DNA from: a virus
Lineage: Duplodnaviria; Heunggongvirae; Uroviricota; Caudoviricetes
IMG/VR virus record: IMGVR_UViG_3300045988_003495
Strand: one strand, 5' to 3'
Length of the DNA: 64,000 nt
In this document: one piece after another, positions 603-19,019 of the stretch
How positions within the stretch are numbered: the first letter of the stretch is position 1
Layout of the letters: every line of letters begins with the position of its first letter
Translations under genes and position numbers: made by a program
Notes under the pieces: model-generated
Database searches by the model: none
What the model saw: only the letters and a program-made list of their open reading frames with translations
Told to the model about the DNA's origin: nothing

Positions 603-2747
603 ATGAACAAAGTACAGATTATTAAAAAGAATGGCTCACTTGAAGAACCTGATATCAAAAAAGTTTTAGCAGCAGTCACAAAGTCAGCTAACAGAGTTGG
701 TTATAAAGAGCTTCCACCAGATGTTACTCAAGCTCTTGAGTCAGCATTTATGAGGATTCTGGTAAAGTCCACTAAGCAGAATAATTTGCTAATTTCGGTA
801 AATGATATTCACAGTATTGTTGAGGGTGCTTTGGCAGAAGTCAATCACGAGATTTATGAGTCTTACTCAACATACAGAAATTACCGTAAAGAGGTTGCTC
901 AAAATTGGGATGAACTCTACCAGAAGACTAAGGATACCCTCTTCTTAGGTGACCGTGAAAATGCTAACTTTGACAGCAGTTTAATTTCTACGAAAGGTTC
1001 AATTATCCGTGGTTACCTGACTAAAGAAATCTTTAAACAGTATCATCTAACACCAGAGGAACTTGAAGCCATTGAGAAAGGCTTTATCTATATCCACGAT
1101 TTGAGAGACCTGATTTTTGGTGGTATTAACTGTTGCCTGTTTGACATTGGTAAAGTACTAAAAGGTGGCTTTGAAATGTCCGGCATTGAGTACTGTGAAC
1201 CTAAATCTGTACTGTCAGCGTTGCAGGTTATTGGTGACGTAGTACTTTCAGCAACTGCACAGCAATTTGGTGGTTTTACTTTAGCAGAGATTGATAAGGT
1301 ACTTGTACCGTATGCTAAGAAGTCTCTACGCTATCATGCTGAGAAAGCATCATCTTATGGTATTCCTAAAGAGCATTACCACAATTATGTAATGGAGCAG
1401 TTACAAATTGAACTGACTCAAGGTTTTCAGTCACTTGAGATGAAACTAAATACCGTACCTTGTAGCCGTGGTGATTTTGCATTCACAACTTTAACATTTG
1501 GTTTACTTGACTCAGATATGTCTAATGAGGATAATCGACTACAATACATGATTGCAAGTACTCTCCTAGATGTTCGTATGAATGGACAAGGTAAGAGCAA
1601 AAAACCTGTTGTATTCCCTAAACTGGTTTATATTTATGACCAGAAGAGACATGATGAAAATATCTGTCAAGGTCACCTGTACAGTAAAGCCATCGAGTGT
1701 TGCTCTAAAGCAATGTACCCAGATTTCTTAAGTGTGTCTGGTCATGGTGCTGTAGCAGAGGCTTTTGAGCGTTCTGGTAAGGTAATTTCACCGATGGGTT
1801 GCAGAGCCTTCTTATCTCCATATTTTAATGAGGATGGGAAAGAGTTTTACGTTGGTCGTGCTAACATTGGTGCTGTATCTTTGAACTTACCTATGATTTA
1901 TCAGTACGCCAAAGAGAATGGTTTAGATTTCTGGAAAGAGCTTGATAAGTACCTAGAGATGATTCGCAGCTTCCACAAGAAACGCTACGAAATGATTGCT
2001 AATATGCCAGCAAGTTCTAACCCTCTCGCATTCACACAGGGTGGTCTGTACAAAGGGAATAAGAAACCTACTGATAAGGTTGGCTGGGATATCGTGAAGT
2101 CCTTCACAGCTTCTTTTGGGGTTACTGCGCTTGATGAATTATCTGTTCTTGCTGAAGGTAAACGACTTCATGAAGTTGGAAGTTGTAGTTTTGCATACGA
2201 TGTTCTGGAATACATCAACATGAAAACTGAAGAGTTTAAAAATGAAGATGGTTTCTTATATGCAGTCTATGGCACTCCAGCAGAATCACTTTGTGGAACT
2301 CAGCTAAAACAGTTCAGAGATATGTTTGGAGTTATCAAAGGTGTTTCTGATAAGGAATACTTTACAAACAGCTTCCATATGAATGTTGCAGCAGACATCA
2401 CACCATTTGAGAAGCAGGACTTAGAAGAACCTTTCTTCCATATCTGTAGAGGTGGCAGAATCCAGTATGTAAGGGTAGCTAATCCAGAAAACTTACCAGC
2501 ACTTAAAAGCTGTATTACCAGAGGGATGTTGAAGGGTTTTTATCAGGGGCTTAACTTTGACTTAGCAATCTGTGAACATTGTGGTAACAGACCAAAGGCT
2601 GATGTTGAAGAATGTGAGGTTTGCCATTCACACGACATCTCTGTGATTAACAGGGTGTGCGGGTACTTGTCATTCACAAAAATTAAAGGTCAGTCTCGAA
2701 TGAATGACGCTAAGATGGCAGAAATCAAGGATAGGGTTTCTATGTAG
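603..2747 (+). CDS. nrdD: anaerobic ribonucleoside-triphosphate reductase (class III RNR)
   Basis: 714 aa; C-terminal glycyl-radical motif RVCGYLS preceded by Cys cluster CEHCGN...CEVCHS; RBS aggggcaataATG. Confidence 0.85.
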   Translation: MNKVQIIKKNGSLEEPDIKKVLAAVTKSANRVGYKELPPDVTQALESAFMRILVKSTKQNNLLISVNDIHSIVEGALAEVNHEIYESYSTYRNYRKEVAQNWDELYQKTKDTLFLGDRENANFDSSLISTKGSIIRGYLTKEIFKQYHLTPEELEAIEKGFIYIHDLRDLIFGGINCCLFDIGKVLKGGFEMSGIEYCEPKSVLSALQVIGDVVLSATAQQFGGFTLAEIDKVLVPYAKKSLRYHAEKASSYGIPKEHYHNYVMEQLQIELTQGFQSLEMKLNTVPCSRGDFAFTTLTFGLLDSDMSNEDNRLQYMIASTLLDVRMNGQGKSKKPVVFPKLVYIYDQKRHDENICQGHLYSKAIECCSKAMYPDFLSVSGHGAVAEAFERSGKVISPMGCRAFLSPYFNEDGKEFYVGRANIGAVSLNLPMIYQYAKENGLDFWKELDKYLEMIRSFHKKRYEMIANMPASSNPLAFTQGGLYKGNKKPTDKVGWDIVKSFTASFGVTALDELSVLAEGKRLHEVGSCSFAYDVLEYINMKTEEFKNEDGFLYAVYGTPAESLCGTQLKQFRDMFGVIKGVSDKEYFTNSFHMNVAADITPFEKQDLEEPFFHICRGGRIQYVRVANPENLPALKSCITRGMLKGFYQGLNFDLAICEHCGNRPKADVEECEVCHSHDISVINRVCGYLSFTKIKGQSRMNDAKMAEIKDRVSM

Positions 2748-2754
2748 CATACAA

Positions 2755-3312
2755 ATGAATTACGAACTGATATATAATGCAATTATTAAGAAGGCACATT
2801 CTGAAAGGGGTGTGCCTCTTACATACTACAAATGTCAAGGTAAGGGTTATGAAAGACACCATATCATACCAGTATGTCTAGGTGGCGATAAAATTAGTGG
2901 AGATAATATTGCTTTACTTACACCTAGAGAGCATTATATAGCTCATAAATTACTGGTTAAGATGTATCCAAACAATCATAAGTTATGGTTTGCATGGAAC
3001 AGGTTAGCTCATGATGGCCTAGATAGGAAAATATCATCCAGAGACTATGAAAAGGTAAGGGCTTTGAACTCGAAAGCTCTATCTATTGTGAATAAAGGTA
3101 GGGTTTTCACTGAAGAACATCGAAGACGATTAGGAGAATCTCAAATAGGCAATACAAAATCAAAAGGTTGTAAAAGGTCTATAGAAACAAGGAAGAAGAT
3201 GTCAGAAGCCGGAAAAAAGCCAAAGAAAAAGAAAACTTGCCCTCATTGTGGTATGACTGGTGGTGCTGGTAACATGACTCGATACCATTTTGACAATTGT
3301 AAGGAAAAATAA
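2755..3312 (+). CDS. HNH homing endonuclease (free-standing)
   Basis: ERHHIIPVCLGGDKISGDNIALLTPREHYIAHK HNH-type motif; basic C-terminal tail ending in CPHCG. ORF track start 2704 overlaps nrdD; in-frame ATG at 2755 just after the nrdD stop is the likelier start. Confidence 0.6.
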   Translation: MNYELIYNAIIKKAHSERGVPLTYYKCQGKGYERHHIIPVCLGGDKISGDNIALLTPREHYIAHKLLVKMYPNNHKLWFAWNRLAHDGLDRKISSRDYEKVRALNSKALSIVNKGRVFTEEHRRRLGESQIGNTKSKGCKRSIETRKKMSEAGKKPKKKKTCPHCGMTGGAGNMTRYHFDNCKEK

Positions 3313-5077: not shown

Positions 5078-5231
5078 CAAGGTGATTGTCAGTGGAGAGC
5101 CGAGTAAATCTCGTCGTAAAATAGGTTATCGGTAAAGGACACTTTACAATGTTCTACAGAACAAACTTAACCGTTTGTGTCACTGAAAAAGAACTTAAAA
5201 CATTTTGTGAAAAGATTGAGAGAGATATGAA

Positions 5232-5480
5232 ATGGGACTCTGGAATAGTTTTAAATCAAAAGTAAAAGCAGCACTAGCTTCATTAGGTATGCTCACTGGT
5301 GTTGATGTGACTCACCTTATGCAGAACTTCAAGATGGACGAGAAGCTGGCTAATGAGATTATGAAAAGTATCTATGTAGGCCGTGGAAAAGGTGGTAAAA
5401 AACAAGCACATCGACCAACTGGTGCAGCAGCAATTAAACGTGCAGCTAAGAAAGCTCGTAACCGTAAACGCAATAAGTAA
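5232..5480 (+). CDS. hypothetical small basic protein
   Basis: 82 aa, Lys/Arg-rich C-terminus (KKARNRKRNK). Confidence 0.4.
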   Translation: MGLWNSFKSKVKAALASLGMLTGVDVTHLMQNFKMDEKLANEIMKSIYVGRGKGGKKQAHRPTGAAAIKRAAKKARNRKRNK

Positions 5481-6656: not shown

Positions 6657-7538
6657 ATGAAAACATCTATCCGTGTTACAGTTCATTCACCAACTAAAGG
6701 GACTCATGAAGAAGAGTTTAACATCATCCAATTTCCTTCTGGTGAGATTGGTGGACACTTTTCGCCAGAGTTTGTTGATTTCACTGCTTATGCAGCATCA
6801 TCCATCAACAATGTGATTATGATTGTAAAAGGTTATGACAAGGACACATTGTTTGCTGTGGCACTTGCTAAAGAAGCAATTGATGATTTAATTCCTCATG
6901 ATTATGCTTTAAAGACTGTCATCTTTTACTACTTACCAAATGCACGATATGACCGTCACATGTTTAAAGGCGACGCAGCAGCTTTAAAGGTTTTTGCTAA
7001 ACAGGTAAATGCAATGGGATTTGGTGCAGTCTGTGCAGTTGACCCTCACAGTTACGTTCCAGATAACCTGTTTAACTGCTTCCAGAGTATTCCTCAAAAG
7101 GAGATTGCAGTCCACTATGCAAATGACCCACTGGTTGATTACTTAGTAGCCCCAGATGCAGGTGCTGCTAAGAAGGTTGCAGAGACCGCTAAAGAGGCGG
7201 ATAAACCATATATCACAATGTCTAAGGTGCGTAACCTTAAGACTGGTGAAATTACTGGTATGCGAATCCTTGATGATGTTGATTTGACAGATAAAACCGT
7301 CATGATTCTGGATGATATCTGTGATGGTGGTCGAACCTTCATAGAAGCAGCTAGACATCTTCGTGAAGCAGGTGCAAAACGTGTGGAACTCTATGTAACA
7401 CATGGTATCTTCTCTAAAGATGTTGAAAACCTTCTTGACAATGGCATTGACCACATCTACACTACAAACTCTTTAGGGGAAGCTAAAGACCGTGGCTTAA
7501 CACATTATGGTCAAGTTACTGTAGCAAATTTGGATTAG
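6657..7538 (+). CDS. prs: ribose-phosphate pyrophosphokinase (Prs) homologue; candidate ADP-ribose pyrophosphokinase
   Basis: 293 aa; phosphoribosyltransferase-type PRPP-binding loop (VMILDDICDGGRTF); RBS gagagagaaaactATG. Confidence 0.75.
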   Translation: MKTSIRVTVHSPTKGTHEEEFNIIQFPSGEIGGHFSPEFVDFTAYAASSINNVIMIVKGYDKDTLFAVALAKEAIDDLIPHDYALKTVIFYYLPNARYDRHMFKGDAAALKVFAKQVNAMGFGAVCAVDPHSYVPDNLFNCFQSIPQKEIAVHYANDPLVDYLVAPDAGAAKKVAETAKEADKPYITMSKVRNLKTGEITGMRILDDVDLTDKTVMILDDICDGGRTFIEAARHLREAGAKRVELYVTHGIFSKDVENLLDNGIDHIYTTNSLGEAKDRGLTHYGQVTVANLD

Positions 7539-7546
7539 GTATTAAA

Positions 7547-8038
7547 ATGGATAAGGGTTACTTCGAAAAATACCTAATATACGAACCGGAGACAGGTTTA
7601 CTAATTTGGAAAGTAACCCTTTGCAATACCGCTATTGCTGGTAATGTTGCTGGCACAAGGTCTAAGAAGGGTTATATCCAAGTCCAGATAAATAAGAAGA
7701 GGTACTATGCACATAATATTGCATGGATTATGTCTGGAGGTGAGATACCAAGTGGATATGAGATAGACCACATAGACCTTGATAAATCTAATAATAAGTT
7801 GGAGAATTTAAGACTTAGCACAAAGTCACAAAATCAGAGGAATAGGGGTATATACAAGAATAATAAAACTGGTGTGAAGGGTGTAAGTTTTTGTAAACAA
7901 ACAGGTCTTTACAAAGCAAGAGTCATGCTTTACCATAAAGAATACTTTTGTGGAAGATTTAAAACGGTAGAAGAAGCAAAAGAAGCTGTAATTAAAAAGC
8001 GAATAGAACTTCATGGTGAGTTTGCAAGACATAACTAA
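7547..8038 (+). CDS. HNH homing endonuclease with AP2-like DNA-binding domain
   Basis: 163 aa; HNH_3-type core (YYAHNIAWIMSGGEIPSGYEIDHIDLDKSNNKLENLR) followed by AP2-like segment (GVKGVSFCKQTGLYKARV...GRFKTVEEA). Confidence 0.6.
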   Translation: MDKGYFEKYLIYEPETGLLIWKVTLCNTAIAGNVAGTRSKKGYIQVQINKKRYYAHNIAWIMSGGEIPSGYEIDHIDLDKSNNKLENLRLSTKSQNQRNRGIYKNNKTGVKGVSFCKQTGLYKARVMLYHKEYFCGRFKTVEEAKEAVIKKRIELHGEFARHN

Positions 8039-8056: not shown

Positions 8057-9838
8057 ATGAGTAAGTCACTTTACGCAGTACCAGCAGGTCTTAATGCAGA
8101 TGCTTACAAGGCATCACATATATATCAGTATCCAGATGCTACGCAATATCTTATGTTGAACCTGACACCACGTAGCGACAAATGGTTTAACAGTCCATTA
8201 GCAATTGATGGTGTAGTCGCTTTTGGTATTCAACGTTTCGTTAAAGATTACTTGATAGACCACTGGAACGCCACTTTCTTTGAACGTGATAAAAAAGAAG
8301 CCATTGATGAAATCTTAGAAGTCATGAATGGTGTTCTGGGTAAAGATGCTATCGGTCGAGAGCATTGGGAAGCACTTCACGACTTAGGTTATCTACCAGT
8401 TGAAGTATACGCTGTAGAAGAAGGCACAGTTGTCCCTATGCGTGTCCCAATGATTGTCTTCCAGAACACTGTTTCAGGTTTCCATTGGGTAGCAGGTTAT
8501 CTGGAAGATGCTTTCTCTGCTGAGATTTGGAAGGCTTGCACTATTGCAACTATTGCATTGCATTACAAACGCATCTGTAAGAAGTGGGCTGACCTTACTT
8601 GTGACAACGACTTGCATCTGCCCTATCAGTGCCATGACTTTGCTATGCGTGGTATGTCAGGCTTTACTGATGACGCATTTAATGCTGTAGGTCACTTAAC
8701 CAGCTTTAAAGGAACTGACAGCTTCCCTGCTGTATACACGGCTAAACGCATCTATGGGCAGTCTTACCCAATCTCTGATATTGGTAGTTCTGTACCAGCC
8801 ACTGAACACTCTGTAATGTGTGCAAACATTGCTTGGGAAGGTGGTAATGAATTGATTGAAGATGAAAGACGCTTTAAAGGTGAGTTACAAACCTTCCGTC
8901 GTTTTTTAACAGAAACTTACCCAACTGGTATTGCAAGTATTGTTTCAGATACTTATAACTTCTGGAGAACTGTGTCAGAAATCTTACCAGCACTCCGTAA
9001 AGAAATTATGGAACGTGATGGCAAACTGGTAATTCGCCCTGACTCTGGAGACCCTGTACATATTGTCACAGGTTATAAAGCAATCCACTTAGAATGTGCT
9101 AAGAAGGCTTATTATGAGCACCTTAGTAAGCTGGAAGCCAGCGACACAATGTTGAATGCTGTTCTGAATATGAAGCTTGAAAACATCAGCTATGGTATTG
9201 CTGGATGGCTACTGTCAGAAGGCTACGAAATGGTTGTTGACAGAGAAGACTTTGAAGTTGCTGATACAGTGATGTTGAAGAACGCTTATATGGTTGGTTC
9301 TGCAAACGTTGTAACACGCCCTGTAGCAGAGATTGATGGGGCTATTAAGACCCTGTATAACATCTTCGGAGGGACTATCAACTCCAAAGGCTTTAAGGTA
9401 CTGGATGAGCATATCGGGCTTATCTATGGCGACTCTATCACGCTGGAACGTGCAAACGAAATCCTGAAGCGTCTGTATGAAATGGGTTTTGCAAGCTCTA
9501 ACGTAGTGTTTGGTGTAGGCTCTTACACTTACCAGTACATGACTCGTGACACCTTTGCATTTGCTGTCAAAGCAACTCTTGCAAGCATTGGTGGTAAAGA
9601 GATTATGCTTGCAAAAGACCCTAAAACAGATAGTGGTGTTAAGAAATCTGCCTTTGGTGGTGTAGCACCTATGTGGGATGGTGATAAGCTGAAAGCTGTA
9701 GATGGCTATGGATTCCAGAGCTTTGCAGATGCACTTGAACATCCAGCTTGTGCTCTACGCTTAGTCTTTAGTGATTCTGAGCAGTATGGTTACACATCTC
9801 TTGGTGATATTCGAAATAATATTGACAAGCAGCTTTAA
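8057..9838 (+). CDS. nadV: nicotinamide phosphoribosyltransferase (NadV/NAMPT) homologue
   Basis: 593 aa; N-terminal region and central motifs look NAMPT-like (HDFAMRGMSGFTDD, GTDSFPA), read by eye without a search. Confidence 0.75.
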   Translation: MSKSLYAVPAGLNADAYKASHIYQYPDATQYLMLNLTPRSDKWFNSPLAIDGVVAFGIQRFVKDYLIDHWNATFFERDKKEAIDEILEVMNGVLGKDAIGREHWEALHDLGYLPVEVYAVEEGTVVPMRVPMIVFQNTVSGFHWVAGYLEDAFSAEIWKACTIATIALHYKRICKKWADLTCDNDLHLPYQCHDFAMRGMSGFTDDAFNAVGHLTSFKGTDSFPAVYTAKRIYGQSYPISDIGSSVPATEHSVMCANIAWEGGNELIEDERRFKGELQTFRRFLTETYPTGIASIVSDTYNFWRTVSEILPALRKEIMERDGKLVIRPDSGDPVHIVTGYKAIHLECAKKAYYEHLSKLEASDTMLNAVLNMKLENISYGIAGWLLSEGYEMVVDREDFEVADTVMLKNAYMVGSANVVTRPVAEIDGAIKTLYNIFGGTINSKGFKVLDEHIGLIYGDSITLERANEILKRLYEMGFASSNVVFGVGSYTYQYMTRDTFAFAVKATLASIGGKEIMLAKDPKTDSGVKKSAFGGVAPMWDGDKLKAVDGYGFQSFADALEHPACALRLVFSDSEQYGYTSLGDIRNNIDKQL

Positions 9839-10413: not shown

Positions 10414-12780
10414 ATGCGCATGGTAAACGACCACGCAGAAGTGATTAAAAGTTCAACTTCTTTAGAGACGTCTCAAGCACAGATTACAATGACACCTGAG
10501 ATGTTCAGCCTTTTGAGTTCTGGTGTATATACCTTTAAAGAAAGGGCAGTGATTCGTGAACTGTCATGTAACGCAGTAGATGCTCAGAAAGAAGCTGGAA
10601 AAGAGAACATCCCATTCCATGTGCATTTACCTACTCGTTTTGAGCCTTACTTCGAAGTTCGTGATTTTGGAACTGGATTGACTCATGATAAAGTTATGAG
10701 TTTGTACCTAAACTATGGAGCTTCTACGAAGAATGACTCTAATGACTACATTGGTGCAATGGGTATCGGCTCAAAGTCACCATTTGCAATTGCTCAGTCA
10801 TTCACAGTATCTAGTTATGTTGACGGTGTTGTTAATAAGTACTCTGTTTATCTTGAGAATGGTATCCCTCAAGTAACTAAGCTGACAACTAACCAAACAA
10901 AAGAACCTAATGGTTTAGCTGTACGTGTGGCAGTTGCTGACCACCGTATCTCAAAGTTCTTTGAAGAAGCTGGGAATGTGTACTCATACTTCACTGTAAA
11001 ACCAGAAAGTAATATTGAGTACGACGATGTATTAGCAGATATGAACGTAATTGCCCGTGAAGAAGGTGTTTATGATGCCATGATTCATAAGCACAGCTGG
11101 CGTTCTAGTGATAACAGGACAGAGTTTAATGTGGTGATGGGTAACATTGCCTATCCAGTGAACATGGAAGCGTTACTTGGTGATGATTTCTTCAAAGTCT
11201 TGCCAGAGTTTTTCCGTAGGAGCGTAGACCTTGTAAACATCTACATGCCTATTGGTTCAGTTGCTATTGCAGCTTCTCGTGAAGCATTGCAGATGAATGA
11301 CACGACAAAAAATGTTATCATTGAGGCTACTAAAAAGATAACTGAAGCCATTACAAAGGATGTTATCAAGAAAGTTAATAGCCAACCTACACTCATGGAT
11401 GCTGCACAGGCTTATGCTGAGTTACGTTTGAACTCACGAGAGATGTTTAATGCTGTGTGTCCAAAGCTAGAGTGGGGTGGCGTTAAGCTTGATTCTCTGG
11501 AAGAAGAATTGCTAAACATTCGTCGTGGAATTATCTACGCAGAAGACGGCTCAGTCATTTACGAACGTGACGGTAAAGGTAATATTAAGGTTGATAGGAA
11601 CGGGAACAATATCCCTAAAGTAGATTATCTTTATGACCCAGTTGCTTATGTCAAGTTTAACTCTTTAGAGAGTAAGATTCGTGCAACAGCACTATCCTAC
11701 ACTCAAGAGGCGAGCATGTTCAACATCTTTGGTGCAATGCGCAAAAGCCAGATTGGACAGTTTTTGTTCGTGATTAATGACCGTCGAAATAAAAATGGCA
11801 CTGAGAAGACTGTTGGGCGTAACCAAATCTTGCGTGGTGCATGTCGAGACTATGCAAGTGAGTCTAGTCTGTTTCACAGATACAATGGTATTGTCTTTGT
11901 ATTCTCGACTGAAAAAGAGTTAGATGACTTAATCAATCTGCACAAACTTGATAAAAGTTTGTTAAAGATTGTGAAAATGTCTGATAAGGAGCACCATTAC
12001 CAGCGTAAAGAAGCTGTAAGAGGTGTTGTAAAACTCTGGAAAGCTGTCCCAGAAGAAGGTGTAGCTTCCTATAAAGAGGTTTCAGAAGACTTTGATACAA
12101 TTGAAGAGCCTCAGCTTTACATTAAGGCAGTTGGTGACACAGTTGATGGCGAATGTTTTTGCTCATCTCCAGAAGATGTAGCCAAGTCAGTTGCTAATGT
12201 TACAGGGAAGACAGTCTATGTTTTCCGAAAAGCAAATTGGAAAAAGATACCAGAAGACTGGATTGAAGTAGATGAGAAACTCTTGAACGATAGCTTAACT
12301 GATGTTCATTGGATTAATCATAACAGGTATATGACACGTATCTATATGAATGGTGTCCTTGACCTTACAAGCAGTTGGATTATTGCCAGAAACTTTACGT
12401 TCAATAACAGGAAGATTTCTCGTGGCTATTGCTATTCACTGGATACAAACAAAACTATCTTCCTAGAAGGTAATGAAGAGGCTGTAGAGGCAATGTTTGG
12501 TAAAATCCAGTATGTTGCTGCACCATTTGCATACACTTACACTATTAGTGTGTTGAAAACTTTGAAAGATTGTCTTGACAACGATACAAAGCTTTACAAG
12601 AAAATTAAGAAAGCTGGTGACCGTATGGTTATTAAGGTGACAAACTACCTTTCAAAAAGAAAACAAGAAAACTTCTTGCTTTCCCATTTAGATTGGAATA
12701 AAGTGTCACCCATCGAAGTGAGTAAGTTCTTAGGTTTTGATGTGAAGTGTGTTCCAGAAGGGACTACAATTTACGATTAA
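10414..12780 (+). CDS. rIIA: rIIA-like protein (GHKL ATPase-like N-terminus)
   Basis: 788 aa; Bergerat-fold-like motifs (RELSCNAVDA, VRDFGTGL, GAMGIGSKS); followed by a second large ORF as in rIIA/rIIB pairs. Confidence 0.55.
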   Translation: MRMVNDHAEVIKSSTSLETSQAQITMTPEMFSLLSSGVYTFKERAVIRELSCNAVDAQKEAGKENIPFHVHLPTRFEPYFEVRDFGTGLTHDKVMSLYLNYGASTKNDSNDYIGAMGIGSKSPFAIAQSFTVSSYVDGVVNKYSVYLENGIPQVTKLTTNQTKEPNGLAVRVAVADHRISKFFEEAGNVYSYFTVKPESNIEYDDVLADMNVIAREEGVYDAMIHKHSWRSSDNRTEFNVVMGNIAYPVNMEALLGDDFFKVLPEFFRRSVDLVNIYMPIGSVAIAASREALQMNDTTKNVIIEATKKITEAITKDVIKKVNSQPTLMDAAQAYAELRLNSREMFNAVCPKLEWGGVKLDSLEEELLNIRRGIIYAEDGSVIYERDGKGNIKVDRNGNNIPKVDYLYDPVAYVKFNSLESKIRATALSYTQEASMFNIFGAMRKSQIGQFLFVINDRRNKNGTEKTVGRNQILRGACRDYASESSLFHRYNGIVFVFSTEKELDDLINLHKLDKSLLKIVKMSDKEHHYQRKEAVRGVVKLWKAVPEEGVASYKEVSEDFDTIEEPQLYIKAVGDTVDGECFCSSPEDVAKSVANVTGKTVYVFRKANWKKIPEDWIEVDEKLLNDSLTDVHWINHNRYMTRIYMNGVLDLTSSWIIARNFTFNNRKISRGYCYSLDTNKTIFLEGNEEAVEAMFGKIQYVAAPFAYTYTISVLKTLKDCLDNDTKLYKKIKKAGDRMVIKVTNYLSKRKQENFLLSHLDWNKVSPIEVSKFLGFDVKCVPEGTTIYD

Positions 12781-14069: not shown

Positions 14070-14618
14070 ATGAAGAAATTGATTCTAGGTTTGTGCTTAA
14101 TGTTTACAGCACACTTATCTTATGCAGTTGACTGCCCAGAGCTATCAATTAGCCAAAAAGTAAACATGTTAAAAGCTTACCAGTATGGTGAGAACAACAT
14201 GGGTAAAGGTTGGGGTATCACTCTAGCTGCTATAGCCTTACAAGAGTCAGAGTTAGGTCTGAAGGTAGAGAATAAAAAGACACATGATTATGGTATTTTC
14301 CAGAATCACTTGAAGACTGTTGTAAAGCGTAACAAAATTAGTCCTAATGTGGCTAAAAAGAAACTCTTAAAAGACTTTAACTATGCTGCGAAGGAAACTC
14401 ACAAAGAGCTTGAGTTTTGGACAAAGGTGCATGGTCAGCCAAAGTCAAAGAAGACTTTACAAAAAGTTTTAGCATCATATAATGCTGGGTATTCGTACAA
14501 AATCCCTAAAGCTAAGAAATATTCTCAAGATGTCTATAACAACATGAAAGTCATTGCTCAATGTGAATTTGCAACAAACATTTCTAAGGTAAACCATGAA
14601 AAAATTAAAAAAGTCTGA
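14070..14618 (+). CDS. secreted protein, possible lytic transglycosylase-like
   Basis: 182 aa; N-terminal signal peptide MKKLILGLCLMFTAHLSYA; IALQESELG...DYGIFQ resembles an SLT catalytic region (weak). Confidence 0.4.
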   Translation: MKKLILGLCLMFTAHLSYAVDCPELSISQKVNMLKAYQYGENNMGKGWGITLAAIALQESELGLKVENKKTHDYGIFQNHLKTVVKRNKISPNVAKKKLLKDFNYAAKETHKELEFWTKVHGQPKSKKTLQKVLASYNAGYSYKIPKAKKYSQDVYNNMKVIAQCEFATNISKVNHEKIKKV

Positions 14619-15291
14619 TGAAGTACTGTGTCATGCTTACGACTTACATCCTCATGAGTTAGGTCTTGATTCCTGTGTATGGACTCCAGAACAGTGTAGG
14701 GATTTTGAAGACACTGCAAGAGAAGTTGTATGTTCACTCGAAGAGTTCCACACATCAGAGCCAATTGTGAATGTTGTAGATAAAGAGACTGGACAAACTA
14801 TAGGTGTAAGTCGTGATAGCTTAGTCATAGTCAATAAAGACCTTGTAGAAAAAGGTAACCTCATCTTAGCAGATATTGATGGTGTTCTTACAAATTTTAA
14901 TCACGAAGATTGCTCAACGGAATTGACTGATGGGTCATTCTCACAGTACACTAATCTTCTTGACTCTGTAAGAGCAAAACCAACGTATGTCTTTAGTATT
15001 ATTGATGCAATTGCTAATCATGCTGCCATTGGACTCTTGACAGCGAGAGGTGAATCTCAGAGAATACCTACTGAGATGTTTTTAAGGCACAACATAGAGC
15101 ATGACTACATGCTTTTTATGCGTGGTTTTGGAACTAACTCTATAAGTGCAGAAAGTTTGAAAGTGAGGATGATTCAGTCTTGCATCCTGCCTTACTTTAA
15201 TATAGTATGTTTTATAGAAGACACAGAGAAGAATGTGCAGAAGGTGAACAGAATCCTTCCACACATTAAAACCATGTTAGTTAAACATTGA
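14596..15291 (+). CDS. HAD-superfamily phosphatase-like protein
   Basis: 231 aa; motif I-like DIDGVLT, then GLLTARGE and FIEDTEKN consistent with HAD motifs II-IV; could be a nucleotidase or 3'-phosphatase. Confidence 0.35.
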   Translation: MKKLKKSDEVLCHAYDLHPHELGLDSCVWTPEQCRDFEDTAREVVCSLEEFHTSEPIVNVVDKETGQTIGVSRDSLVIVNKDLVEKGNLILADIDGVLTNFNHEDCSTELTDGSFSQYTNLLDSVRAKPTYVFSIIDAIANHAAIGLLTARGESQRIPTEMFLRHNIEHDYMLFMRGFGTNSISAESLKVRMIQSCILPYFNIVCFIEDTEKNVQKVNRILPHIKTMLVKH

Positions 15292-15777: not shown

Positions 15778-15802
15778 AGGCTCCTTCGGGAGCCTTTTTC
15801 AT
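15778..15802 (+). terminator. intrinsic terminator
   Basis: ggctcc-ttcg-ggagcc followed by ttttt. Confidence 0.6.
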
Positions 15803-17138: not shown

Positions 17139-17339
17139 ATGGCTGACTTCTGCAAAGACTGTTCTATCGAAATGTTCGGACGTGATACAGGTGACTTAAA
17201 AGGTCTCGTCACTGAAGATGACTTTAAAGCTGGTTATGCGATTCCAGTAATCTGTGAAGGCTGTGGGTGTATCTGGGTAGACCACGAAGGGCAACGTGTA
17301 AAGCCTTCAGAAGATAAAGAATCTTGGGAGAGATGTTAA
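17139..17339 (+). CDS. small Cys-rich (zinc-binding?) protein
   Basis: 66 aa; CKDC...CEGCGC cysteine pairs. Confidence 0.35.
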   Translation: MADFCKDCSIEMFGRDTGDLKGLVTEDDFKAGYAIPVICEGCGCIWVDHEGQRVKPSEDKESWERC

Positions 17340-18125
17340 ATGGGTATTGTAAAAATCATCAAAGGTGATATCTTTGACGCCTTTGATAAAGGTAAGTTTG
17401 ACATCATTGGTCATGGTTGTAACTGTATGAATTTAATGGGTGCAGGTATTGCAGCAACTATTTCTAAGCGTTATCCAAAAGTGTATGATACTGACACAGA
17501 AGTTTACCTGTTTGCAGGTGGCATTCGTCACAAACCCTGTGAAAATTTACTAGGTAATTTCTCTGTAGCACGTTTAAAACAAGGCCGTATAGCTAACCTT
17601 TACACCCAACTTCATACTGGTAAAGATGCCCGATACAGTGCTTTAGAGTCATCCTTGAAACAGCTTAACAGATACTGTGAAGTTAACCAGTTGAAGAAAG
17701 TTGGTCTACCTATGATTGGTGCAGGTATCGGTGGACTTGACCCTCAAGCTGTCACAGTTATCATTAATCAGGTGATGAAGAGTGTAGATGTTTATCTGTA
17801 TGTCTATGAAGCAAAAATGTATAATGAGTTACACTCAGGTTGGAAAAACTACTGTGAACCAGAATACTTTGCAGGTGTAGTTGTGTTCACAGATAACGCA
17901 GTTACCCTCTTCAGACGAAGAAAAGGTAAGATACATCAAAGTAACCCTCCGGTTGAAAAGATGTCTCTAAGTAACGCTCTAGTTACCCACCTGTCGAAGA
18001 GCAATCACAGAATTGCAGTAACATTTGGCAGTGATGCAGATGCTTATATCTATGCAAGAACTGATGAGGATATTGAGTTAATCCTCTCTTCACCAGAACT
18101 TACCTTCTTAGACGCAAAGAACTAA
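17340..18125 (+). CDS. macro-domain protein (ADP-ribose binding/processing) with C-terminal extension
   Basis: 261 aa; canonical macro signatures GDIFDAF...DIIGHGCNC and MGAGIAATIS in the N-terminal 60 aa. Confidence 0.7.
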   Translation: MGIVKIIKGDIFDAFDKGKFDIIGHGCNCMNLMGAGIAATISKRYPKVYDTDTEVYLFAGGIRHKPCENLLGNFSVARLKQGRIANLYTQLHTGKDARYSALESSLKQLNRYCEVNQLKKVGLPMIGAGIGGLDPQAVTVIINQVMKSVDVYLYVYEAKMYNELHSGWKNYCEPEYFAGVVVFTDNAVTLFRRRKGKIHQSNPPVEKMSLSNALVTHLSKSNHRIAVTFGSDADAYIYARTDEDIELILSSPELTFLDAKN

Positions 18126-18187
18126 GAAACTTCGTAGTATATTCACAATAGACTAAGCCTTTCTTATCTGGTAAATTTTTCAGGTAA

Positions 18188-18400
18188 GGAGGGCTTTTTC
18201 ATTTCAGATTTGTGCAGGTAGAGTTCTGTAGAGAAATCTATAGAGAAAATTTTGAACTCCAAAGAGAAAATTCATTTTCAAACTGTGCAGGTAATCTCCA
18301 AAGGGTTTTTTCATTTTCAAAACGTGCAGAGAAAAATCAGGTCGGGCAAGAAAAATCATTTTAGAATTGTGCAGGTAGGTGGGGGTAGGTGGGACTGTCG
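18188..18400. repeat. four direct repeats (iteron-like) sharing core tCATTTtcAaAnTGTGCAGGTA, plus tandem gtaggtggg x2
   Basis: Copies near 18200, 18272, 18312 and 18353, spaced about 40-70 bp apart, in a 500-bp non-coding gap. Confidence 0.6.
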
Positions 18401-18554
18401 CCATTTCTCACAAGGCTACCACATCTGAAAATAAAAGTCAACAGAAAAATTTGTAGCGGATTGAAAAATAATTCTTGATTGTAGTTCTGTTTTGTGGTAG
18501 TCGCGCGCACCCGTTTCATTACAATTTTTGCAAAAAATATTTTTAAAAATTTTC

Positions 18555-18583
18555 TTGACTCTTTGAACTGGGTTATCTAATAT
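18555..18583 (+). promoter_or_regulatory. sigma70-like early promoter
   Basis: TTGACT (18555-18560), 17-nt spacer, TAATAT (18578-18583); preceded by an AT-rich tract (18520-18554). Confidence 0.55.
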
Positions 18584-18635
18584 TTGCATCAGACGGGGCG
18601 ACAAGCTCAACAACCTTAAACTAGGAGATTCAAAA

Positions 18636-19019
18636 ATGGCATATCGTGCACCTAAATTCATCAACAAAGACAACTTTCGCAACGCACTGGAGAAGTCACT
18701 TGATGAAAATTTTAAAGGTAACATTATCGTTGTTCACGCATTCAATTTTAAGTATGATGTAAACGGGAATAGAATCAACCATTACACGGCAACCATGTTA
18801 GATGGTACACTTTCAAGTGAAAAAGCCGTACTAAATGCACTGGCAGGACGTGGAAAGGTATTAGTAAGATGTGATAAGAGACGTTATCAGGGCGGTGCAT
18901 ATGGTTATGATGATGCTGTTTACCATCTTGAAAATATGGGCTATCAAGTAGAAAAAGCTGGAGCATCACAAATCATCGGCAGTGATGGTTATGTAACTAT
19001 CTTCAAAATTAACAAATAA
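18636..19019 (+). CDS. hypothetical early protein
   Basis: 127 aa; RBS aggagattcaaaaATG shared with the downstream early-gene family. Confidence 0.5.
   Translation: MAYRAPKFINKDNFRNALEKSLDENFKGNIIVVHAFNFKYDVNGNRINHYTATMLDGTLSSEKAVLNALAGRGKVLVRCDKRRYQGGAYGYDDAVYHLENMGYQVEKAGASQIIGSDGYVTIFKINK

Follow-up and report, generated by a model that had tools for sequence, protein, structure and literature searches.

A two-domain macro protein of a Felix O1-type phage

The 64,000-nucleotide stretch of virus DNA analysed here (IMG/VR record IMGVR_UViG_3300045988_003495, Caudoviricetes; hereafter the window) carries on its plus strand, at 17340-18125, an open reading frame (ORF) whose 261-amino-acid product joins an N-terminal macrodomain to a C-terminal region of about 100 residues. 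This macro gene had been singled out in an original prediction made from the sequence alone, and its ATG start and stop codon were found where they had been placed, as were all the motifs named there, namely GDIFDAF (within KGDIFDAF, residues 8-15), HGCNC (25-29) and MGAGIA (33-38); beyond these, the translation holds a second glycine-rich loop, PMIGAGIGG, at residues 124-132. Since the full-length two-domain protein is kept in about 256 phage records, and since in Felixounavirus the mean ratio of nonsynonymous to synonymous substitution rates (dN/dS) stays at 0.07 over the macro part and at 0.24 over the C-terminal part, the ORF is no chance reading frame but a real gene. Its stop codon is followed by an intrinsic-terminator-like hairpin (Table 1), for which a 'terminator' feature annotated in the record of phage Barry offers a comparison, and the macro gene closes its own transcription unit as the final gene.

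The 3.5 kb around the macro gene are 91-94% identical to many Felixounavirus genomes, among them Escherichia phage Barry, Salmonella phage GEC_vB_B1 and wV8, and the window comes from a Felixounavirus, that is, a Felix O1-type phage. The gene itself is 92.6% identical to its Felix O1 orthologue, ORF13, which is named 'phosphatase' and bears the GenBank note 'hypothetical 17.5 KD protein in tk-vs intergenic region', while elsewhere it is entered as 'macro domain protein' or 'O-acetyl-ADP-ribose deacetylase'; PHROG 335, again a 'phosphatase', matches residues 1-260 (E=5e-114). Public annotation already contains both the gene and its assignment as macro, and the macrodomain as such is not novel. 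Two points are additional to it: throughout the phage subfamily the active site is of a glutamine type, like that of SCO6735 and distinct from those of DarG and AdfM, and the members of the subfamily in the Andersonviridae carry an orphan C-terminal domain that is under selection and structurally unmatched.

The N-terminal part belongs to the ALC1-like macrodomains

The Pfam Macro profile (PF01661) matched residues 25-141 over profile positions 2-117 of 118, with 32.2 bits against a cutoff of 22 (E=1.1e-7). An AlphaFold2 model of the full protein, built with 24 homologues, reached a predicted local distance difference test score (pLDDT) of 92.2 and a predicted template modelling score (pTM) of 0.89, and Foldseek returned 243 PDB matches to it at E<=0.001, in which DarG (5m3e) stood at the top and was accompanied by TARG1 (4j5r) and Poa1p (6lfr), with E~1e-10 and target template modelling (TM) scores of 0.77-0.88. 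Similar results were obtained at the sequence level, where the nearest solved relative was human TARG1/OARD1 (E=1e-6 with the single sequence and 2.6e-12 with a profile), followed by the DarG macrodomains, TTHA0132 and yeast Poa1p. Of the PADLOC and NCBIfam profiles, DarG alone gave a meaningful match (E~5e-15), limited to the macro half: the PADLOC DarG profile was matched at positions 5-146 of 329, and the DarG equivalog of NCBIfam (NF048014) at positions 2-151 of 338, with 55.5 bits against a cutoff of 250. On account of the PF01661 match, the TARG1, DarG and Poa1p matches in sequence and by Foldseek, and the DarG profile matches, residues 1-157 are confidently assigned, from sequence and model together, to a macrodomain of the ALC1-like (TARG1/DarG/Poa1p) class. 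The macro fold which the original prediction had read from its motifs is thus supported both by a Pfam match above cutoff and by the likeness of the model to DarG, TARG1 and Poa1p, and both glycine-rich loops are kept intact (M33-G-A-G-I-A38 and P124-x-I-G-x-G-I-G-G132). The other ADP-ribose-binding elements are also present in the sequence, with G9-D10 corresponding to TARG1 G19-D20, the N-terminal aspartate for adenine, and binding of ADP-ribose by this macrodomain is predicted.

A glutamine occupies the position of the catalytic lysine

Q90 aligned with TARG1 K84 in every alignment that was made, and stood in phmmer, profile, MAFFT and BLASTP alignments in the column that holds the catalytic lysine of TARG1 (K84), DarG (K80) and AdfM (K78), a column occupied by glutamine in 133 of 133 family members. 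TARG1 D125, the other half of the Lys/Asp dyad, aligned with G131, a position that is glycine or alanine throughout the family. Ten residues were invariant in the 133 homologues (H25, G26, N28, G36, A38, N86, Y88, Q90, P124 and G129), residue 89 was threonine in 128 of them and serine in five, and N28 aligned with AdfM N23, whose DarG equivalent is N22; the family can be recognised by the signature HG[CA]N[CT] ... NLY[TS]Q ... PxIGxG[IL][AG]G. As H25, N28, N86, Y88 and Q90 are all among the invariant residues, the alignment suggests an enzyme more than a passive binder.

A glutamine at this position has been characterised in SCO6735 of Streptomyces coelicolor (PDB 5E3B), an ALC1-like macrodomain in which Gln85 takes the place of TARG1 K84 and DarG K80 (PMC9411070). 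In that protein the Gln holds the distal ribose where an activated water can attack it, the exchange Q85A abolishes activity, N27S nearly abolishes it since Asn27 locks the Gln, and His24 adjoins the active site (PMC9411070). SCO6735 hydrolyses the thymidine-ADP-ribose made by DarT on DNA as well as ADP-ribosylated protein, and protects cells from DarT (PMC9411070). As judged transitively, through the alignments with TARG1, DarG and AdfM and the structural superposition given in that paper, Q90 matches SCO6735 Gln85. H25-G-C-N28, both ends of which are invariant, shares the H-x-x-N spacing of SCO6735, and from this spacing and the conservation of Asn27 in DarG described there, H25 and N28 would be the counterparts of SCO6735 H24 and N27.

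The C-terminal region is a genuine domain

The original prediction had left an extension of roughly 100 residues at the C-terminus unassigned; this extension comprises residues 158-261, and a Pfam search of these ~104 residues gave no match. Modelling gave confident results for the region within the full protein as well as by itself (pLDDT 85 for the isolated region), and the region can be aligned across homologues at 13-25% identity, with P174, G179 and Y236 conserved. Its dN/dS of 0.24 within Felixounavirus denotes purifying selection that is about 3.5 times more relaxed than in the macro part, and between genera the nonsynonymous rate (dN) was 0.35-0.48 in the C-terminal part versus 0.15-0.19 in the macro part; such relaxed purifying selection is as expected of a recognition surface. 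Because it gives a confident model, stays alignable at 13-25% identity and is under purifying selection, the C-terminal part is a genuine selected domain. The pTM of 0.89 for the full model further suggests that the two domains form one compact, fixed unit.

A fold search of BFVD returned only the protein's own family. A word-indexed search with the C-terminal domain alone gave no matches, a method which is weak for short queries and for which an exhaustive profile search was substituted. The profile weakly matched giant repeat proteins and PQQ beta-propellers (P0043-P0046, E 1e-5 to 4e-4), and a tetrathionate hydrolase in PDB came up at E 0.009, and all of these were rejected as relatives because the resemblance lies in a blade-like 'DGVVY' beta-hairpin and because Pfam shows PQQ, YDG and reverse-transcriptase proteins without common context. 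Two further matches, P0042 and P0047, were truncated ORFs of the same macro gene. The C-terminal domain may represent a new fold.

Distribution of the one-domain and two-domain forms

By tblastn the C-terminal domain was found in 256 phage records, and all those examined were Ounavirinae or Ounavirinae-like phages with genomes of ~85-90 kb, representing Felixounavirus, Suspvirus, Mooglevirus and their relatives; distant two-domain homologues were noticed on metagenomic contigs of 84-92 kb and in Arnovirus (family Andersonviridae). The domain is an orphan, which occurs only fused to this macrodomain and in Andersonviridae phages. With tblastn, the single-domain form of the family was met in at least 2823 of 50,697 phage records, T-even phages among them, in which it sits between vs and tk in the Tk.4 position, and it makes up at least 5464 protein clusters, mostly of ~150 amino acids, on phage-sized contigs.

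Some other phage macrodomains of the subfamily carry different extra domains (P0033 of 339 amino acids, and phrog_30914 with a profile of 371 positions), and one such phage protein pairs PF20274 with the macrodomain. It seems from these examples that one macro core has acquired various accessory modules in repeated fusions.

A proposed function in reversing host ADP-ribosylation

We propose that the protein is a lysine-independent ADP-ribose-conjugate hydrolase which reverses host ADP-ribosylation and uses its C-terminal domain for the recognition of a target or partner, and on the grounds of sequence, model and analogy we give this explanation a probability of roughly 0.45, a little short of even odds. 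According to this proposal the N-terminal macrodomain would bind ADP-ribose and would most likely strip it from DNA, RNA or protein modified by an ADP-ribosyltransferase of the host, be it a defence or a toxin such as DarT2, the leading candidate substrate being the DarT2-type DNA modification. In place of a catalytic lysine, Q90, held by the invariant Asn28, would set the distal ribose in place for an activated water to attack, as in SCO6735, and the lineage-specific C-terminal beta domain of ~100 amino acids, predicted to pack on the macrodomain, would probably serve to recognise a target or partner. A role in counter-defence is supported by two phage-encoded erasers of ADP-ribose. AdfM (gp104 of the chimallivirus PhiKZ), a DarG2-like macrodomain that erases ADP-ribose from DNA and counters DarTG2, was reported in 2026 as the first macrodomain counter-defence protein and uses the classical lysine (PMC13309987), and AdfN, a phage NADAR protein, counters DarTG1 (PMC11825919). 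It is also supported by the place of the macro gene, which belongs to an accessory block conserved across divergent relatives, one of them with an Ocr homologue nearby. Among the three functions that the original prediction had put forward, i.e. reversal of host ADP-ribosylation, degradation of ADP-ribose-derived defence signals and feeding of the nicotinamide adenine dinucleotide (NAD) pathway, the first appears by comparison with known systems to be the best supported.

Several points weigh against this proposal. The catalytic lysine of DarG and AdfM, the proven erasers of ADP-ribose on DNA, is missing in the phage protein, and K34 and K89, the lysines with which SCO6735 positions DNA, would by motif spacing only fall on A35 and G94 here (G94 being followed by K/R95 in the two-domain clade). 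The SCO6735 structure 5e3b was matched in sequence at E=0.14 only, and TARG1 and DarG are nearer, so that convergence may account for the common Gln. The small-molecule phosphatase Poa1p, too, has the HxCNC motif. No similarity was found between the C-terminal domain and the DarT-binding domain of DarG. The wide spread of the single-domain form possibly exceeds what one defence target explains. In the literature we found no characterised member of the Gln-type phage macrodomain subfamily, and no paper on Felix O1 ORF13, on the function of Tk.4 or on phage macrodomains besides AdfM. Finally, for Bas63, which is a Felixounavirus, the text of the PhageMaP study lists the macro gene as a counter to none of 33 defence systems, a panel outside which DarTG and Thoeris lie (PMC11482910).

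The alternative that survives best is a Poa1p-type small-molecule hydrolase, either an ADP-ribose-1''-phosphate phosphatase or an O-acetyl-ADP-ribose deacetylase, which would clean up or recycle NAD-derived metabolites in the infected cell, possibly together with the PNKP-like phosphatase or the NAD-salvage genes. Among the motifs, HxCNC and the N-terminal 60 residues resemble Poa1p best, Poa1p is one of the top structural neighbours (TM 0.77), the PHROG and GenBank names read 'phosphatase' and 'O-acetyl-ADP-ribose deacetylase', the block of the macro gene consistently holds a gene for a PNKP-like HAD phosphatase, and genes for Nampt and a phosphoribosyl pyrophosphate (PRPP) synthetase-like protein lie on the same genome arm. 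However, these names are transferred annotation and not tests, Poa1p S30 and F152 are L32 and G131 here, and Poa1p has a serine where the phage family has its invariant Gln. Nampt-based salvage, moreover, needs no ADP-ribose, and between the NAD genes and the macro gene stand about 13 others, rIIA/B and the spanins included, together with a terminator-like hairpin at 15778-15795. Nor is it obvious why a small-molecule enzyme should need an additional recognition domain that evolves fast, and we regard this alternative as unlikely, though a real contender.

We consider it quite unlikely that the protein destroys or sponges ADP-ribose-based immune messengers, such as the 1''-2' and 1''-3' glycocyclic ADP-ribose (gcADPR) of Thoeris, histidine-ADP-ribose (His-ADPR) or N7-cyclic ADP-ribose (N7-cADPR), and thereby blocks TIR signalling. 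The type II Thoeris effector ThsA does sense His-ADPR by a macrodomain (10.64898/2026.06.04.730250), phages are known to sequester or cleave such signals (PMC12265669), and the macro family is widespread in virulent phages. But the known anti-Thoeris proteins Tad1, Tad2, Sequestin and Lockin are not macrodomains (PMC12265669), PADLOC gave DarG only and no ThsA-type macro model, and an oligomeric sponge architecture is without support. The H25/N28/Q90 triad looks catalytic, besides, and its sole characterised counterpart acts on glycosidic ADP-ribose conjugates.

An equally doubtful extension of the eraser proposal would make the C-terminal domain a module for binding a toxin or target, and the protein a phage-evolved DarG analogue with two modes of action: its Gln-type macrodomain would erase ADP-ribose from the nucleic acid of the phage, while the fast-evolving C-terminal domain would bind the host ADP-ribosyltransferase, DarT2 or another, directly and block it, or tether the enzyme to single-stranded DNA. 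Such a protein would be a convergent two-domain anti-toxin with a fold not seen before.

A non-catalytic reader or scaffold, binding only ADP-ribose or ADP-ribosylated partners, with the effector function residing in the C-terminal domain, is in our view very unlikely. The Lys/Asp dyad of TARG1 is replaced by Q90 and G131, and loss of activity is reported to recur among macrodomains (PMC10221186), yet the Gln is absolutely conserved together with the His and Asn, and such a Gln is essential for catalysis by SCO6735 (PMC9411070). The C-terminal domain is nearly devoid of conserved polar residues, only P174, G179 and Y236 being conserved, which argues against an effector active site there. Least likely of all is a role without any counter-defence, in which the protein would regulate physiological ADP-ribosylation of phage or host by erasing marks like those of T4 Alt/ModA/ModB, or act on RNase III as YmdB does: the T-even orthologue in the Tk.4 position coexists with Alt/ModA/ModB (PMC8120803) and some sources name homologues 'regulator of RNase III', but no ADP-ribosyltransferase is annotated in the inspected parts of Felixounavirus genomes, and the RNase III name comes from the MacroD-type YmdB, which belongs to a different clade.

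The proposed reversal of host ADP-ribosylation stands as a sharpened, testable hypothesis on an already-annotated gene. Major defences of bacteria work through ADP-ribosylation, of DNA in DarTG and of mRNA in CmdTAC, or through ADP-ribose-derived signals, as in Thoeris, and Gln-type macrodomains are among the commonest accessory genes of large virulent phages, T4 carrying one. Should the Felix O1/Tk.4-type proteins be active lysine-independent erasers, a function would be assigned to a very large gene family, and this would help to predict the host range of the Felixounavirus phages used in the typing and therapy of Salmonella and E. coli. The Andersonviridae-specific C-terminal domain would furthermore offer a way to study how erasers gain target specificity.

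Genomic neighbourhood of the macro gene

In Felix O1-like phages and in divergent relatives the macro gene stands last in a conserved accessory block made of rIIA, rIIB, an SLT-like gene, a PNKP-like phosphatase gene and small ORFs, and from the rIIA/rIIB synteny its placement in the early region is plausible. The scanned neighbours are phage genes without assigned function. The features of the window are collected in Table 1.

Table 1. Features of the macro gene and of other genes in the window
Feature	Position	Strand	Basis or remark
Complete coding sequence (CDS): macrodomain and orphan C-terminal domain, orthologue of Felix O1 ORF13	17340..18125	+	ATG start, 261 amino acids and stop
Macrodomain, residues 1-157, three-layer alpha/beta/alpha fold, TARG1/DarG/Poa1p-like	17340..17810	+	PF01661, PDB sequence matches, AlphaFold2/Foldseek, DarG profiles
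Loop 1 / active-site motif H25-G-C-N28-C-M-N-L-M-G-A-G-I-A38	17412..17453	+	Alignments, 133 homologues
NLYTQ motif, invariant; Q90 codon 17607-17609	17598..17609	+	Alignments, 133 homologues
Loop 2, diphosphate-binding Gly loop P124-M-I-G-A-G-I-G-G132	17709..17735	+	Alignments
C-terminal region, residues 158-261	17811..18122	+	Connecting helix 158-167, six beta strands, acidic C-terminal helix 243-249
Shine-Dalgarno-like GGGAGAG, 7 nucleotides 5' of the ATG, within the 3' end of the upstream ORF	17326..17332	+	Read from sequence
Upstream 66-amino-acid Cys-rich ORF (CxxC...CxxCxC), phrog_2210, function unassigned	17139..17339	+	TAA abuts the macro ATG
Intrinsic-terminator-like hairpin, 17-bp stem and T-run, 30 nucleotides past the macro stop	18155..18206 or 18155-18196	+	
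231-amino-acid ORF, 'polynucleotide kinase' (phrog_3970)	14596-15291	+	Residues 84-219 match other 'polynucleotide kinase' PHROG profiles
PRPP-synthetase-like gene (NAD salvage)	6657-7538	+	
HNH/AP2 homing-endonuclease ORF, between the PRPP-synthetase-like gene and Nampt	7547-8038	+	
Nampt (NAD salvage)	8057-9838	+	
Anaerobic ribonucleotide reductase NrdD (ATP-cone and NRDD)	603-2747	+	
NUMOD3-motif ORF overlapping nrdD; may be a homing endonuclease	2704-3312	+	

The pairing of the 66-amino-acid Cys-rich ORF with the macro ORF is kept in Felixounavirus, Suspvirus and Mooglevirus, and because of this conservation across three genera translational coupling of the two is possible. An obligate partnership was considered and rejected, as the two genes stand apart in one relative (L005), and the link is only suggestive; another metagenomic relative, L006, carries a different, zinc-ribbon-like ORF in place of the Cys-rich one. 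The L005 homologue of the 66-amino-acid ORF, at 5226-5426, is ~70% identical by eye and the macro protein of L005 only 32% identical, so that the small protein is the better conserved of the two. L005 also encodes, at 10715-11056 and ~4 kb downstream of its macro gene, a homologue of the Ocr family of anti-restriction proteins (PF08684), which fits the idea of an anti-defence and host-takeover block. In two divergent metagenomic contigs with two-domain macro proteins (L004, 4906-5193, and L006, 5467-5823), an ORF that by eye looks MazG-like, from an LLLLKLSEEC-type motif, precedes the macro gene by a few genes, and the window has no equivalent at that position.

We take the 231-amino-acid ORF for the HAD phosphatase half of Pnkp-type enzymes, since relatives weakly match PF25109 (HAD_PNKP); the kinase P-loop half was not detected in it. 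In divergent relatives it is syntenic with rIIB, the SLT-like gene and the macro gene. A link to RNA repair, in which ADP-ribose-1''-phosphate made by Tpt1 would be removed by a macro phosphatase, was rejected, no Tpt1, RNA ligase or ADP-ribosyltransferase being found among the scanned neighbours or in annotated relatives.

The NAD module, which the original prediction had located about 8 kb upstream, lies 7.5-10 kb upstream of the macro gene, and we found no evidence of a functional link between the two. In Bas63 the NAD genes counter NAD-depleting defences, and the orthologues there, g79 and g80, are reported to counter Sir2-HerA, the Ec86 retron and hhe (PMC11482910). Farther upstream, phage HMD-P8 has two separate CDSs annotated in the nrdD region, a split which suggests mobile-element activity at the nrdD locus.

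Right after the macro terminator, in the intergenic stretch 18126-18635, we noticed four direct copies of a 19-nucleotide box, TCATTTYMRAWNYGTGCAG, starting at 18199, 18272, 18311 and 18356 on the plus strand; no further copy is present in the 64-kb window, and 0.21 matches would be expected by chance. These boxes could be binding sites of a regulator or part of a small RNA. A sigma-70-like TTGACT-17-TAATAT lies at 18555-18583, upstream of the ORF at 18636.

Comparison with characterised macrodomains

TARG1/OARD1 is the nearest relative of solved structure and shares the fold, but its K84 and D125 are Q90 and G131 in the phage protein. DarG/DarG2 gave the best PADLOC and NCBIfam profile and the top structural match, and has a similar two-domain logic in which an eraser macrodomain is followed by a second domain; the DarT-binding domain at its C-terminus, however, is not present in the phage protein, which also misses the equivalog cutoff. 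Poa1p resembles it in overall fold (TM 0.77) and in having HSCNC for HGCNC, and differs at S30 (L32 here) and F152 (G131 here), both of them residues mutated in PDB entries, and in its serine at the Gln position ('FTS' versus 'YTQ'); the sequence profile match is limited to Poa1p residues 4-62.

AdfM is likewise phage-encoded and of the same macrodomain class, with its active-site N23 aligned to N28. It shares only 25% identity, however, keeps the catalytic Lys78 where the present protein has Q90, and is a single-domain protein which is imported into the phage nucleus. The T-even protein in the Tk.4 position ('17.5 kDa protein in tk-vs intergenic region') belongs to the same subfamily, with 34-35% identity and identical HGCNC, NLYTQ and IGAGIG motifs, but is a single-domain protein of 155 amino acids; it is the protein to which the GenBank note on the Felix O1 gene refers.

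SCO6735 differs in that direct sequence similarity to it is weak (5e3b, E=0.14), its K34 and K89 are apparently not kept, and it is a single-domain bacterial protein whereas the phage protein has an added C-terminal domain. It is similar in carrying Gln at the position of the catalytic Lys together with the His and Asn of the H-x-x-N motif, a Gln-type group which also includes Bt_1257, and in being a free-standing eraser with no toxin gene beside it.

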